DNA from: Mobula hypostoma
Taxonomy: Eukaryota
Assembly (NCBI RefSeq): GCF_963921235.1
Contig: NC_086108.1
Span: forward strand, 28,770,001 to 28,834,000
Reading direction: 5' to 3'
DNA: 64,000 nucleotides
The translations under genes were made by a program, and so were the position numbers. Under the pieces are notes generated by a model that was not told the origin of the DNA, did no database searches, and worked only from the letters and a program-made list of their open reading frames with translations. Shown piece by piece: positions 24,860-31,567 of this stretch; within the stretch, counting starts at the first letter, position 1, and each line of letters opens with the position of its first letter.

Positions 24860-25554
24860 ACCCTCTACCCATCCCTTCTGGAACCCTGTAACTGCAGATG
24901 CTTATTCCTAAACCACCTCCCTCACTACCATTCAGAAACTTAAACAGCCTCTCTAGGTGAGGCAAGGATTTACTTGCACCTCTCCAACCTTGGCTATTGC
25001 ATTCGGTATTCCCAATGTGGCCACCTCTACATCGGAGAGACCAAGCCTGGACTATGTAGTTGGTTTGTGAAACACTCTACACTTCATACAATGGCCTTCC
25101 CAGCCCAAGGTGACAAGCCACTTCAATAACCCCTCCCCTTCTCCTGACAACCCTGGCCTTCTCCACTGCCCTGCTAAGGCCCAATGCAATCTAGAGGAAC
25201 AACACTTCGTTTTGCCTGGGTAGTTTACGATCTAATGATACAAAAATTGGATTCTCCAATATCAGGTAATCCTTCCCTTCTAATCTTTCCCAAACATTCT
25301 CTCTCTGATCCAACTCCATTCCTCCCATTTATGTCCCCATTTCCAAGCATCCATTCCAGTTCCCTAACGCTCATTTTTGGCACACATTCCCTCCCGGTTC
25401 CATCTACTGGTTTCCCTCTTTGGTTCCATCTGCCTTTCACCTCTCCCATAATCGATCCCAGTATTACTTTTCTTACTTATCAGATACCACACATAGAGCC
25501 TTTGTCACCAACTGGTCTCTGATTCCACCTTTGCCCTTCCAATTATGGTCCATC
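24860..25554 (+). mobile_element. Old Penelope-like fragment (GIY-YIG remnant + 3' region), continues at ~29308-29490
   Basis: tattgcattcggtattcccaatgtggccacctctacatcggagagacc (..CGHLYIGET), aligns by eye to 38050-38340. Confidence 0.7.
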
Positions 25555-25705
25555 AGCGAATCAGCCGAGACCGGGAGGGGGAGCAGCGCCGGGACCCCAC
25601 CAGGTAGGAGAGAGGTCCGGCAGGGAGAAAGACCCTTTCCTCCTCCCCCTCTCCCTTTCTCTCCGCACACTGGTCTCCTACACTCTGCTCATCACCCCGC
25701 CCCCC

Positions 25706-26618
25706 CGTCTCTGTAACCCCTACACTCCCCATCCTCCTGTTCAAACCCCTCGCTCACCCCCATCTCTGTAATCCCACACTCCCTGTCCTCCTGTTCAAAC
25801 CCCTCCCTCGCCCCCGTCTGTAATCCCACACTCCCCATCCTCCTGTTCAAATCCCTCCTTCGCCCCATCTCTGTAATCCCACACTCCCCCCTCCTGTTCA
25901 AACCCCTCGCTCGCCCCCATCTCTGTAATCCCACACTTCCTGTCCTCCTGTTCAAACCCCTCCCTCACCCCCTCCCTATCTCTGTAACCCCTACACTCCC
26001 CATCCTCCTGTTCAAACCCCTCCCTCACCCCCCTCTATCTCTGTAACCCCAACACTCTCCCCTCCTGTTCAAACCCTTCCCTCACCCCGTCTCTGTAATC
26101 CCACACTCCCCATCCTCCTGTTCAAACCCCTCCCTTGCCCCATCTCTGTAATCCCACACTCCCTGTCCTCCTGTTCAAACCCCTCCCTATCTCTGTAACC
26201 CCTACACTCTCCCCTCCTTTTCAAAGCCCTCCCTCACCCCCCCGTCTCTGTAATCCCACACTCCCCCCACCTGTTCAAACCCCTTGCTCATCCCCGTCTC
26301 TGTAATCCCACACTCCCCATCTTCCTGTTCAAACCCCTCCCTTGCCCCCGTCTCTGTAATCCCACACTCCCTGTCCTCCTGTTCAAGCCCCTCCCTCCCC
26401 GTCTCTGTAATCCCACACTCCCCATCCTCCTGTTCAAACCCCTCCCTCACCCCATTTCTGTAATCCCACACTCCCCCCTCCTGTTCAAACCCCTCGCTCG
26501 CCCCCATCTCTGTAATCCCACACTCCCTGTCCTCCTGTTCAAACCCCTCCCTCACCCCCTCCCTATCTCTGTAACCCCTACACTCACCCCTCCTGTTCAA
26601 ACCCCTCCCTATCTCTGT
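25706..26618. repeat. C-rich minisatellite, ~17 units of ~50-60 bp
   Basis: Unit ctctgtaatcccacactccccatcctcctgttcaaacccctccctcacccc(g/a)t, with higher-order block similarity (~25885-25995 vs ~26475-26585). Confidence 0.95.
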
Positions 26619-26620
26619 GT

Positions 26621-26790
26621 AGGGAGCTCTGAGGAGAGGGAGTACCTTTGGTGCTGATAGCTGCGCCTCACTAAGGTGGGGATGGAAGGCATCACTGGAC
26701 CTCACTCATCTCCTAATTCTCTCACTTGTTGGCTCCTCATGCCACACCCTGGAAACCGCTTCAGCTAGCGGGCGAAAACAAGTGAGAGGG
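26621..26790 (+). ncRNA. HDV-like (delta) self-cleaving ribozyme motif, mutated, at the RTE 5' end
   Basis: P2 ctctcacttgtt(26719-30)/aacaagtgagag(26777-88); P3 ggc/gcc with L3 tcctcat; P1' acaccct; P1.1 gg; P4 ccgct/agcgg; J4/2 gcgaa with catalytic C at 26773. Confidence 0.75.
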
Positions 26791-29297
26791 TGGTCTCATT
26801 ACTACACCACGAGGTGATCATCCCAACGGCGGAGCAGGCGGAAGAGGAGACATCTCCCAACGGCTGCAAAGGCGGATGAGGATGTCCAACAATGGGTAGG
26901 GAGGCTTGCGAGCACGCCGCAAGAACCGCCGTAGACCCACAACACTCAGGGCTTGTCTACCTAGCGTGTGAAGCCTGGATTCGGCAGACTGCGCGGAAGA
27001 AACCATCACTGGTTCAATGGGCAGAAAGGCGATTCTCAGCAATGTGTCGTGGAGCGCTAAGAGGGCACAGTGAGACACACAGAACACTGCTGGCCATCCA
27101 CTGCATCCTGACCTATCTCCAGCCGTCTCGACTATGTCTTGCCACTGGGTCCAGATAGGCCGGAACGAGAGAGTGAGGCTGATGACCTGCGCAACTCTCC
27201 CTCACTTTAATCCAAGTCAAGCGCAAGTCATGACTTCAAACCCAACGCGCAACCTAAAGTCCTGTGGTGATGGGGGAGTGGCAAAGCAGCAGGTACGGAT
27301 ACACTGGAAGCTGTAGTCACAAACCTGCACACAGGCGGCCCAGGGCGTAGGGTCGCTCTCTACTGGACCGAAGCAGCAGTTGAGTTCGGCAGCCCCCTGG
27401 GTGTCTGAGCAGCCCTCTTCAGGGTCGCTCTGCTCACCTCCATGGAGGAAGGGGCTGGAAAAGGTGCCTCAAACATAGTCTGCTTCACCTCACCCTGGCC
27501 AGCTTACCGCGGCTGGTGGGGATCCCTCATTGCGGTCGACCTACAACAGTTAAGAAGAAAGTGATGGTGCTCAACCTTGGCACATGGAACGTGAGAACTC
27601 TGCGAGATAACATCAAGGCAGACAGACCAGAGAGAAGAACTGCACTGGTTGCAAAAGAGCTAGCTCGCTACAACGTGGACATAGCAGCTCCCAGCGAAAC
27701 ACCCCCAGCAGACAAGGGCCGGCTGACAGAACGTAGTGGTAGATACACGTTCTTCTGGAGCAGTCGCAGTAGCGCTGAACGACGAGAAGCAGGCGTGAGA
27801 TTTGCCATCAATTCTAACCTTGCCCGTAAACTCACCAAGCACCCAGAGAGCATCAATGACCGCCTGATGACACTTCAGCTCCCACCTGCAAACAAGAAGA
27901 GTGCTACGCTGATTAGTGCCTATGCTCCCACCATGACCAACCCGGATGACATTAAAGACAAGTTCTATGAAGAACTCAACGCCCTCATCTCAGCAATCCC
28001 ACAGTCAGAGAAGCTCATCGTTCTCAGGGACTTCAATGCCAGAGTAGGGACAGACTACCAAACCTGGATGACGGCGACGAGTCGGAGGCCTTCCCAGTGA
28101 CAAATGGCGTCAAACAAGGCTGCGTTCTTGCCCCGACTCTGTTCAGTATGGTATTCTCTGCCATGCTGACAGATGCCTTCTGTAACTACGAAGAAAGAAT
28201 CCACGTCAGGTACAGGACTGACGGCAGGTTGTTCAACCTTAGGCGCCTGCAGGCAGTTACAAAGGTGCGAGAGACTGTCATCAGAGACTTGTTGTTTGCT
28301 GATGACTGCGCACTCAACGCCAGCACAGAGCAGGAGATGCAGTGTGAAATGGACTGCTTCTCACAAGCCTGCGACAACTTTGGTCTCACTATCAGCACTA
28401 AAAAGACCGAAGTTATGTACCCGCCTGCCGCAGGAAAGCCATACCAGGAGCCGCGCATCACGGTGAAGGGCCAGAACCTCCAGGTAGTGGATAACTTCAC
28501 CTACCTGGGCAGCATACTCTCTCGCACAGTGAACATAGATGCTGAGGTCAACAACAGGATTGCCAAAGCCAGCGCCGCCTTTGGGAGACTCCGTGAGAAC
28601 GTCTGGGAGCAGAGAGGACTCAGCTTTACCACCAAGCTGAAGGTCTACTGTGCAGTGGTCCTTACCACCCTCCTTTACGCCAGCGAGACCTGGACTGTCT
28701 GCAGCAGACACGCCAAATAGCTCAACCACTTTCACCTGAGCTGTCTCCGCAGACTCCTCCACATCAGGTGGCAGGACAAAGTCCCCGACACGGAAATCCT
28801 GGAACGAGCTGGGCTCTGCAGCGTCTACACCCTCCTGCTGAAAGCCCAAGCCAGGTGGGCTGGACATGTAGTCAGAATGCCAGACAGCCGATTGCCTAAG
28901 CAGCCGCTGTACGGAGAACTGTATCAGGGCAAGCGCTCAGTCGGGGGGGCAGAAGAAACGTTACAAAGACTGCTTCAAAGCATCCCTCAAAGGCCTCGGT
29001 GTCGACATCAACACGTGGGAGACGCTTGCCCTCGACCGTCCAGCTTCGCGCAGCAAGATCACCACAGGAGCCCATGCAGCTGAAGTCAGGCGCATCATCG
29101 AGGCGCAACGAAAGCATGCTGTGCGCAAGGCCCGAGCAGCATCCCCTGCCACGACAGCACCCACCCACTTGTGTCCCACATGTGCGCGAGCCATCAGGGC
29201 CCGGATTGGCCTCATCAGTCACCTCCGGACCCACAGCCACCAATCTCCCATTTGACTTTGAAGCCATGGTCATCTTTGACTACGAAGGACGAACAAC
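26621..29297 (+). mobile_element. RTE (BovB-like) LINE with long 5' region and internal deletion
   Basis: APE GTWNVRTL..SET..ISAYAPT..DFNARVG; RT GVKQGCVLAPTLFS..LLFADD..YLGS; C-terminal CPTCARAIRARIGLISHLRTH; aacaac tail; APE joined directly to mid-RT at ~28066-28070. Confidence 0.9.
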
Positions 29298-30072
29298 ATG
29301 GTCCATCCATCACCTAATGACCCTCAATGCACCACTCCCCTTCTCTTCTTTATACTGGCAATCTTCCAACTCCACTCCCAGTTTGAGTGCAGGGTCTCAA
29401 CTCTAGATGTTGGCAATTCCTCCCAAACCTCTGCCCACCCCTCCCAAAACACACACAAAGTTTGTTTGACCCATAGAGTTGCTCCACCAGATAGGTTCAA
29501 AAGTACACATCCCTGATTCCTCAGCCCTGCTATAAAAACTGTAAATCCTTCACATTTCCCCCATTTCTGAGGAAGGGTAACTGATGTGAAATATTAGCTA
29601 GCTTCCAATTCTACAGGTGTTGTTTGAGTTCCTGAAGTATTTTTATCTCATAAAAGGCCATGTGGGTTCAATGATTATGTGGTTCCTTCCTGTGCTGTAG
29701 ACTGAATCCAGAGGAACTGAGATCTCAGCTATCGAACCCAAACCAACTGAACTGAAATTTAAAAAAAACTGTTCCTTTATTTCAATGAAACACAAAGGCA
29801 GAAACAAGGCAACTTCTAGTGTTAGAAGAAGATTTGGTGGAAAGCAATTTATGGATGCAAGCATTCCATTCCTCATTTTAAAAAAAAAGCATTATCTCCA
29901 CACTGGAAAAAAAAGCACTTTGTAGGATCTAAGGCATAAAGAAAATCAGATACATTCTGTTCCTACACAAAGCCATATATCACACGAAAAGACTGCTCCT
30001 CTCCTACTGCTAATCTAGACTGAAGTATTCATCAGATGCAGCACTACGCAAAGTTCCAGCACAAGAGTCAGT

Positions 30073-30897
30073 TGTGCCGAGAGTACACATAGATTAAGAC
30101 GTTAGCTGTCCTGTGCTGGCACCAGTGGGATCAGCAGTTGGTCTGCCACCTGTCTTCAGGAGGAAGAGAGATAAGGAAAACAACGGAGCAGCATTTGGAG
30201 ATGTTAATGAAGGGACGGGAGAGTTTAACGGAAGGAGAGCTGTCAAGATTGGCCCCCCCTTTGAACCCTGAACTGTTTGAAGTGATGGACAGGCGATACC
30301 CCAGCAGGGGGATAAAAAGGGACAGGTTCGCTAAGGCAAGACACACACGACACCAAGCCATAGACGCACAGGGTGGAAAGGTACGATTGGCGGGAACCTG
30401 GTGTGTGTCCGCCCTTGCCTAGGTGCCAGGTTCACCGCAGAGAAACAATCGTATCTGGAAACGGAGGGGTCACGGTCGGTGACCTCAGAAGACATCACAA
30501 AGGGCTCGCCCGAAAGCTGACTGCGAAGAATATCGAAGGTCTGTGTGGAAGCCGTTTGAATATTCATTCGTTTTTGCTCTCTCTCTCCTTCCCCCCACTG
30601 TCCATCGCCACGGCAGTGATTACTGTGAACGGAACTGAACTCAATTGAACTGAACTTTGCGTCACTTTGAAACTGGTCAGTTACCCCTAGACGACGATAG
30701 AGCTTGATTGATCCTGTTATCCTAATTCTGGGTACATGTGTGTTTATCATTGCTGAACTGTTGCATTTATTATCCTTTTGATTAGAGTACTGTGTTGCTT
30801 GTTTCTTTAATAAAACTCTCTTAGTTCTAGTAATCCAGACTCCAACTGAGTGATCCATTTCTGCTGGTTTGGCAACCCAGTTATGGGGTACGTAACA
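30073..30897 (+). mobile_element. Solo LTR (825 bp)
   Basis: TG...CA termini (tgtgccg / cgtaaca); 4-bp TSD cagt at 30069-72 and 30898-901; aataaa at ~30809. Confidence 0.8.
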
Positions 30898-31567
30898 CAG
30901 TCTTCTCAATACGTGTTACAAATGAGTTACTGGGTATGAGAACCTGAACTCATTCTTCCCAATAAAAACCCAAATAGAGGCCAAGAGTAAAACTCCACAA
31001 ACCCTTCCAGTTAAATTTGGCCAAATTGTAGAAGCAAATCCATGATCCTATACTAAGAATTTTTTTTAAATCTAAAAAGCTGTTTGTTCAGTTTCCTTTA
31101 AATTAGTACTTACCTATGCTTCTAAATGCTAGAAATGTGAAAGAAAACTGCCAAAAAGGTTGCAGAGGTATGAACTGAATAAGAGGATACATCTTCAAAC
31201 GGGCAAGATTTGCCCTAATGAACCTGGTAGTTAATGGTGATAATGATTAAGGAATCATCTTGCACAACCATTCTATCTCCAGCTTGAGAAGGGTTGGGTG
31301 CAGAGGAATGCTGAAATCCAAACATGTTTATTTCAACAGTAATATGTTCACTAATTCCAAAAAGAAAACTTCCTCACTGAACATGTTTTATTCTAGGCTT
31401 CAATCTGACCTTTTGATTAAAAGACCAAAAAGCAAATCTTCTATAGCAGATTTGAAATTTTTGGGAAAATTAGTTTTAGTTATCAAATAGTGAAAATATC
31501 AATTCAATTTCTATATTCAACAAAAAAAATATAGCTTCAATTAAAAGATTGTCCTCTTACTCAAATA

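Follow-up and report, generated by a model that had tools for sequence, protein, structure and literature searches.

We studied a 64,000-nt stretch of the Mobula hypostoma genome (NC_086108.1), referred to below as the window, with coordinates counted from its first letter. Window positions 26614-26788 probably represent a decayed large ribozyme of the hepatitis delta virus (HDV) type, forming the first ~175 nt of two kinds of retroelement: a lineage of RTE-type long interspersed elements (LINEs), which we call B1, and a family resembling short interspersed elements (SINE-like), which we call B2. The window copy belongs to B1, and directly upstream of it lies the 3' end of a zinc-finger transcript, joined to the element inside the ribozyme helix P1, where three nucleotides of the cut-site end are missing. 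The fold itself is real, and the 5' strand of P1 lies a few nucleotides upstream of where it had been placed in an earlier prediction made from the same DNA.

Results

An HDV-like fold in the window copy

The original prediction described a nested double pseudoknot composed of P2, P3, L3, P1.1, P4 and J4/2, and all of these parts are present where it had placed them (Table 1). P2, P3, P1.1 and P4 are intact in the window copy. P1 retains four of its seven pairs and has lost the three that lie closest to the cut site, so that the copy looks cleavage-dead, as had been predicted. When 26614-26788 was folded without pseudoknots, the minimum free energy (MFE) structure consisted of exactly P2, P3 and P4 plus one long hairpin at 26622-26714 (z = -1.9), and it left both strands of P1 and the G residues of P1.1 unpaired. 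A descriptor of the whole layout, run on both strands of the window, matched once, at this site, and never in 40 dinucleotide shuffles, also searched on both strands; because it was written with the site already seen, the shuffle result does no more than bound the chance rate.

Element 5' ends and the true position of P1

The 3.48-Gb assembly from which the window comes was searched with 26611-27100, and the best 40 of 365 candidates were scored. Six of these 40 match from query positions 1-7 (the locus itself and five sister copies), one starts at query position 130 and 33 start at position 152, which is 26762 in the window. A second query, confined to the part specific to type B (26621-26761), gave 10 places, each of which was scored: seven match closely (B1), and the remaining three do so at 76-78% identity (B2). 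In five of the seven B1 copies, that of the window included, a minisatellite lies upstream with an identical junction, and the other two (C18 and C9) are free of it. These two clean copies start with AGGGTGT, which is followed by AGGGAGC, and their upstream flanks are unrelated. Since AGGGTGT is the exact complement of ACACCCT, the 3' strand of P1, the true 5' strand of P1 corresponds to 26614-26620 in the window. It had originally been assigned to AGGGAGC at 26621-26627, ahead of an insert in J1/2. The insert stands as a conserved hairpin domain, and in the RNAalifold structure AGGGAGC is the 5' arm at the base of this hairpin (P1.2), paired with 26710-26714, and no part of P1. The expectation that family 5' ends lie near 26621 came within 7 nt of the position found.

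Target-site duplications (TSDs) stand beside the P1 start in both clean B1 copies. In one, GGAGACCAGA directly abuts the element and leaves its first base ambiguous by 1 nt (A or G); in the other, AACTCA is followed by 2 extra nt. For B2, a search with one of its copies yielded 368 candidates, of which the best 40 were scored and 30 loci fetched (L041-L070). Homology begins at GGGGTAT in 30/30 of these loci, with unrelated flanks upstream, and P1 is formed by GGGGTAT and ATACCCC. B2 elements are ~460 bp long and SINE-like, with no ORF (open reading frame) of their own and a (GAA)n tail (for example L049:1288-1751, minus strand). The 3' end could be recognised in 20 loci, and nine of these have an exact TSD of at least 7 bp that ends 0-3 nt from G1, seven of them at 0 nt, compared with 11 of 380 in a control with mismatched flanks; several imperfect TSDs were seen by eye in further B2 copies. 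The first base of the element is thus the first base of P1 in 30/30 B2 and 2/2 clean B1 copies, with P1 sequences that differ between the two families. Read from this first base, the putative cleavage site would lie 5' of the first P1 nucleotide, which is indirect evidence of its position.

The homology of B2 to the RTE element is restricted to its first ~200 nt, and a derivation of the B2 body or tail from this RTE was rejected for that reason. A loose likeness between the start of B2 and a tRNA 5' end was a further lead, which we dropped: when eight loci and the window were run through ARAGORN, none proved to have a tRNA-like head.

Covariation and conserved bases

An alignment of 39 copies (7 B1 and 32 B2, all rows kept) supports the fold. 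The five-helix structure leaves 90.5% of 1131 cells paired, compared with 34-51% once partners are displaced by 1-3 columns, and three of five whole-structure measures were reached by 0/500 shuffles. P1, P2 and P1.2 covary between B1 and B2. In the five helices, three pairs have changed on both sides: 8-137 (A-U in 29 copies, G-C in 6) and 3-143 (G-C in 21, G-U in 6, A-U in 1) in P1, and 118-175 (G-C in 26, U-A in 7, G-U in 5) in P2. Given no structure, RNAalifold returned P2, P3 (2 bp), P4 and the long J1/2 hairpin over columns 11-106. Three pairs of this hairpin differ on both sides between B1 and B2, and the linkers around it measure 1 and 4 nt.

Positions outside helices are kept too. The G and C of J4/2 are invariant in 39/39 copies, within the motif GCGAA in B1 and GCUAA in B2. 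In L3 the U is found in 37/39 copies, the two C residues in 39/39 and 38/39, and the G in 36/39; A replaces this G in the window, L034 and L061 alone. The family majority for L3 is UCCUCGU, as had been anticipated, with the G in five of the seven B1 copies.

Relatives in metagenome contigs

Metagenome contigs were scanned with five aligned relatives that combine apurinic endonuclease (APE) and reverse transcriptase (RT) domains, and 80 loci were returned. To these loci (277.5 kb, both strands) we applied a relaxed core descriptor that forces pairing and consists of P3, an L3 starting with UCC, GG, P4, C-N-R-A and a P2 of at least 6 bp. It matched 10 times in sense and once in antisense. All 10 sense matches lie upstream of the ORF match, nine at ~360-780 nt and one (L136) at ~1.9 kb. 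A P1 partner was found within 220 nt in eight of the ten, pairing 7/7 in seven and 6/6 in L085. The two that have none are L136 and L078, whose contig holds merely 12 nt of upstream sequence. The matches comprise six distinct ribozyme sequences, and P1, P2, P3 and P4 differ between these lineages; one has P1 GTGGTGT/ACACCAT with P3 GCC/GGC, another P1 GGTGGTG/CACCACT with P3 ACC/GGT. L3 reads UCCNNGN in 10/10, a full motif beyond what the descriptor demands, and GC[U/G]AA, which it did not require either, is the J4/2 motif of five lineages out of six; in L114 the P4-J4/2 region is larger and its assignment less certain. On contig L077 a P1 of the B2 type stands ahead of a full RTE ORF. The prediction that this retrotransposon lineage is headed by an HDV-like ribozyme is supported.

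L082 and L084 share both ribozyme sequence and locus coordinates and are probably one element sampled twice; the sequence is also present in L083, and they were counted as one lineage.

Could the HDV layout be a chance resemblance? Taken one at a time, short helices and a P3 of 3 bp turn up readily, but no shuffle of the window reproduced the layout, the fold is kept in two genomic families, and it recurs in several metagenomic RTE lineages, with 10 of 11 core matches on the sense strand and those 10 upstream of the ORF. This explanation is already contradicted and we give it almost no credence.

Zinc-finger cargo upstream of the putative ribozyme

The sequence upstream of the window copy comes from a C2H2 zinc-finger gene. 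A parent-like multi-finger gene of this kind lies at C80:36.57 Mb (L156; G000:C80:36568900-36570600, minus strand), and its ORF passes straight into a 3' untranslated region (3'UTR) where the 54-bp minisatellite found upstream of the window copy takes up more than 1.1 kb beyond the stop codon. The minisatellite is therefore native to the 3'UTR of the zinc-finger gene and was not made at the RTE end. Five composites of cargo and RTE share window sequence from about 25550 onward alone. The cargo/RTE junction is identical in 5/5; it lies in P1 with a 2-nt GT overlap at 26617-26618, and in all five the first 3 nt of P1 are replaced by minisatellite.

The composites start at different points of the transcript. 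Measured on L156, the starts are 188 for C36, 421 for the window, 420 for the copy on C80 at 19.89 Mb and 520 for C64. The composite on C50 at 12.67 Mb (L071) has an inverted piece, 189-353, followed by a direct piece from 459, which is the pattern that twin-priming 5' inversion would be expected to leave. Cargo and RTE lie within a single TSD in 3/3 composites tested, namely 9 bp in the window (Table 1), 11 bp in C36 (TTTTATCAACC) and 6-9 bp in C64 (TGTATA or ACATGTATA), and the 5' ends of the three differ. Having each its own TSD, they represent independent retrotransposition events of one chimeric RNA, and the cargo has been mobilised together with the element, as originally proposed.

The 5' ends of the composites coincide pairwise on L156, at 188/189 and 420/421 (window 25555; L072, L074, L071). 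The C36 copy was considered as the donor gene and rejected: it has its own 11-bp TSD, while the parent-like gene continues upstream unbroken. At a position where the C36 retrocopy has TGA, the ORF of L156 has CGA.

Which lesion goes with the cargo? The original prediction held that P1 begins at AGGGAGC, with 5/7 pairs, and that the change of G to A in L3 had killed the ribozyme and so led to transduction. AGGGAGC can indeed pair 5/7 with ACACCCT, and a G-to-A change at the equivalent position of the antigenomic HDV ribozyme reduces k2 by a factor of 528 (PMC3386971, Table 1). Against this, AGGGAGC is taken up in the basal pairing of the J1/2 hairpin, the 5' ends of the family map 7 nt upstream of it, and four of the five cargo-bearing copies keep the G in L3. 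We consider this version very improbable; the lesion that the composites share is a P1 that lacks its first 3 nt. The A in L3 is private to the window among the five composites, lies in a CpG and recurs independently in L034, which is free of cargo, and it therefore postdates the chimera. The original prediction had allowed for this by noting that the mutation might be later than insertion.

It is also conceivable that the ribozyme is real and yet irrelevant to the cargo, with the reverse transcriptase having switched template onto a zinc-finger mRNA and the chimera having spread as transcribed, uncleaved RNA being always available. The 2-nt overlap at the junction fits such a switch, as does a parent-like gene whose 3'UTR lacks the RTE module. 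On the other hand, P1 is broken in 5/5 composites, and shared upstream sequence is carried by 0/30 B2 and 0/2 clean B1 copies. An origin by template switch would moreover be compatible with a dead ribozyme, given that the switch itself would remove the start of P1. We hold an irrelevant ribozyme to be unlikely, and favour loss of P1 as the change that matters for the cargo.

The RTE element and the type A lineage

The element appears to be of the RTE type, judging from the architecture characteristic of that clade (one ORF of ~1000-1100 aa with APE at the N terminus and RT, a length of ~3-4 kb, a short simple-repeat tail) and in keeping with the name originally given to it. Exo_endo_phos and RVT_1 domains were found in the ORF remnants of the window. 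The first seven residues from the ATG are those of a 1079-aa APE+RT protein, and identity reaches 94% over the RT part. Proteins related to the RT remnant measure 1040-1100 aa, combine APE and RT and occur in many animals, with contigs of ~4.2 kb; a sister RTE copy is ~4.18 kb long. The tail of the element is (ACA)n-like. The 3' end of the RTE was placed by pairwise comparison of copies. A private internal deletion of ~1.5 kb at ~28064-28067 has removed part of the APE-RT region in the window copy.

Several further observations concern this element and its surroundings. The C18 sister copy has a different internal deletion, from 27351 to 28415 in window terms. The RTE-type proteins P0001, P0002 and P0007 end in a conserved C2H2-like motif, C-P-x-C-G-R-x-F/L-R-A-R-I-G-L-x-S-H-x-R-x-H. 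Just 3' of the RTE, an unrelated and very abundant repeat occupies 30073-30900 (5991 candidates), and most of its other copies match in two blocks ~70 bp apart.

The prediction that the ribozyme marks the RTE 5' boundary holds for B1 but not for the majority type, which we call A. In type A (33 of the best 40 of 365 candidates) homology to the window starts at 26762, inside the P4 loop. These copies keep the 3' half of the ribozyme alone, and upstream of it they have a CpG-rich region of their own, made of tandem ~44-bp monomers with variable 5' ends. A second ribozyme was sought in the type A 5' region, with no match in 23 loci. Within the type A loci L008-L030, a third upstream variant is present in L008 and L019, and in L018 the shared sequence extends only about 30 nt upstream of the joint.

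Table 1. Features of the putative ribozyme, the RTE-type element and its cargo, in window coordinates.
Feature	Position	Strand	Sequence or remark
5' TSD	25546-25554	+	TGGTCCATC; identical 9-mer recurs directly after RTE tail
Cargo, unique part	25555-25701	+	Last codons and 3'UTR start of C2H2 zinc-finger transcript; matches 421-558 of L156 (reverse complement)
Cargo, 54-bp minisatellite	25702-26616	+	~17 units; TRF: 25702-26610, period 54, 17 copies
P1 5' strand, truncated	26614-26620	+	TCTGTGT (family AGGGTGT); 4/7 pairs with 26744-26750
Structured J1/2 insert (P1.2-like hairpin domain)	26622-26714	+	RNAalifold and MFE fold; contains AGGGAGC
P2	26719-26730 with 26777-26788	+	CTCTCACTTGTT with AACAAGTGAGAG; 12 perfect bp
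P3	26731-26733 with 26741-26743	+	GGC with GCC; encloses L3
L3	26734-26740	+	TCCTCAT; A26739 replaces the family's G
P1 3' strand	26744-26750	+	ACACCCT; exact complement of family AGGGTGT
P1.1	26735-26736 with 26751-26752	+	C residues with G residues; GG directly 3' of P1 3' strand
P4 hairpin	26756-26771	+	CCGCT 26756-26760, loop TCAGCT, AGCGG 26767-26771
J4/2	26772-26776	+	GCGAA; presumed catalytic C at 26773
Remaining RTE-type element	26789-29298	+	5'UTR, ATG 27230, decayed APE and RT frames; tail ends in GACGAACAACA
3' TSD	29299-29307	+	TGGTCCATC; window composite 25555-29298 lies between the two TSDs

Discussion

The fold, its conservation and the coincidence of P1 with the element start point to a ribozyme, and a number of observations weigh against this reading or against the role that we give it. 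The Rfam HDV-family models gave no match in the window at gathering score and none in 26400-27000 at E up to 10, and they gave none in eight loci with more intact B1/B2 copies and metagenome relatives; the site is recovered by our descriptor but not by these models. The strict descriptor passes just 6/30 B2 and 1/7 B1 copies, most copies being decayed and the descriptor undercounting; L047, L049 and L068 are examples of B2 copies in which every helix is intact. Covariation between B1 and B2 amounts to few events along one split and not to many independent ones, and the two other whole-structure measures were reached by shuffles, double-change pairs by 160/500 and further pair types by 209/500. 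The metagenome evidence is one of strand and position bias and of unforced conserved bases, the pairing itself being forced by the descriptor. HDV-like ribozymes typically start P1 with a G-U wobble, and the first P1 pair here is mostly G-C or A-U (G-C in 21, G-U in 6 and A-U in 1 of 39 copies, unpaired in 11), with a partner C that lies in a CpG and may not be the original base. Self-cleavage is predicted, and the uniform 5' end could also reflect a fixed transcription start. With respect to the cargo, the assembly search, covering all 10 type-B places, found no promoter-bearing master locus for the composite, and there is no ribozyme module near the parent-like gene L156. Active ribozymes also rarely cleave completely, so that retention of cargo needs no strictly dead ribozyme.

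Some of these points would fit a structured 5'UTR that serves some other purpose (to initiate translation, to bind protein or to act as an internal promoter, for instance), the first base of the element being simply the transcription start. Besides the predicted nature of cleavage, the silence of the Rfam models and the unusual first P1 pair, this explanation can draw on the HDV-like folds of R2 and L1Tc, which PMC6765202 also credits with IRES-like (internal ribosome entry site) and protein-binding roles. A role of this kind would nevertheless leave unexplained why all HDV core features are conserved, including the J4/2 C and the L3 G, which do not pair, and why two families of different P1 both begin precisely on the first base of P1; a tRNA-like head, moreover, was found neither in the eight loci nor in the window. 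We regard this alternative as quite unlikely and retain the ribozyme as the better explanation of the conserved fold.

On that basis, events may have proceeded as follows. In intact relatives, RNA co-transcribed from upstream DNA would fold into P1, P1.1, P2, P3 and P4 with the structured J1/2 hairpin and would cut itself 5' of the first P1 nucleotide, so that this nucleotide would become the first base of each new insertion. The RTE would have been joined to the zinc-finger 3'UTR minisatellite either by insertion into that 3'UTR and read-through or by a template switch of the reverse transcriptase, and the first 3 nt of P1 would have been lost in the process. Deprived of the cut-site end of P1, this chimeric RNA would no longer shed its upstream part, and it was retrotransposed whole on at least three occasions. 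The G-to-A change in L3 came later, as a private CpG transition, and would add to the weakening of the ribozyme. We thus infer that loss of cleavage is the reason why the cargo was retained.

This leads us to a broader proposal, which we put forward tentatively and at somewhat less than even odds. P1 integrity may act as a gatekeeper against host cargo, such that a loss of 3 nt spread the 3' end of a zinc-finger transcript to at least five loci; and type A, later present in hundreds of copies, may have exchanged the 5' half of the ribozyme for CpG-rich monomers, with the break inside the P4 loop, and thereby have moved from ribozyme-processed co-transcription to its own promoter. If this were true, nature would have put ribozyme function in a vertebrate LINE to the test twice, by a knockout (the P1 loss) and by a replacement (the type A swap). 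Repeated co-mobilisation of host sequence does coincide with loss of the helix at the cut site, which is the in vivo outcome expected if the ribozyme strips upstream RNA. Apart from the cargo, the data provide a well-supported vertebrate example of a predicted HDV-like ribozyme common to a LINE and a SINE-like family, and relatives of the LINE carry the same ribozyme core across many metagenomic lineages. They also indicate that curated covariance models miss the large-J1/2 form entirely.

Publications on HDV-like ribozymes that head LINEs, RTE elements among them, go back to ~2011. A narrow literature search found no publication on HDV-like ribozymes in cartilaginous-fish retrotransposons and none linking ribozyme loss to 5' transduction; nor did it meet the sharing of a ribozyme between LINE and SINE-like elements as seen here, or the replacement of the ribozyme 5' half as in type A. 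LINE 5' transduction and chimeric retrocopies of LINE and mRNA are themselves familiar, with a host transcript fused upstream of a LINE within one TSD. The composites resemble these in having a host transcript upstream of a LINE in one TSD, variable 5' truncation and, in one case, a 5' inversion. Unlike them, they have their junction inside the P1 of a predicted ribozyme, so that the event which made the chimera also removed the device normally stripping upstream sequence.

RTE ribozymes cleave at the element 5' junction, and single mismatches in P1 go with loss of activity (PMC3774820). The R2 ribozyme likewise frees the element RNA from a co-transcript and its cut site sets the 5' junction (PMC3774820, PMC6765202), and P1 mismatches in R2 are associated with loss of cleavage (PMC3774820); for the Mobula element both properties are predicted. 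In contrast, R2 as these accounts portray it is site-specific in 28S rDNA and often takes its P1 from upstream 28S sequence, whereas the element described here inserts at many sites and encodes its own P1. The pair formed by B1 and B2 recalls L1Tc and the non-autonomous NARTc of Trypanosoma cruzi, two elements that have a 5' HDV-like ribozyme in common (PMC3383444, PMC6765202), a LINE and a short non-coding element with the same ribozyme head. A difference, according to these papers, is that the same 77 nt of L1Tc also act as an internal promoter. In Schistosoma mansoni, Twister-variant ribozymes stand at the 5' end of RTE-clade elements (PMC8501958, PMC7761336), where they carry out the same task of 5' processing of RTE-type elements with another ribozyme class.

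[quoted passage not shown] This ribozyme, drz-Agam-2, is located on an RTE element. PMC4908430 describes large HDV-like ribozymes of the drz-Agam-2 type as having a structured J1/2 ('P1.2') and a 12-bp P2 and as being fast. The Mobula ribozyme differs from it in showing no detectable sequence or Rfam-model similarity, in a first P1 pair that is mostly G-C or A-U and in being a predicted ribozyme. It is thus of a known kind, that of the large HDV-like RTE ribozymes of drz-Agam-2 build, and its interesting feature is a P1 knockout tied to 5' transduction.

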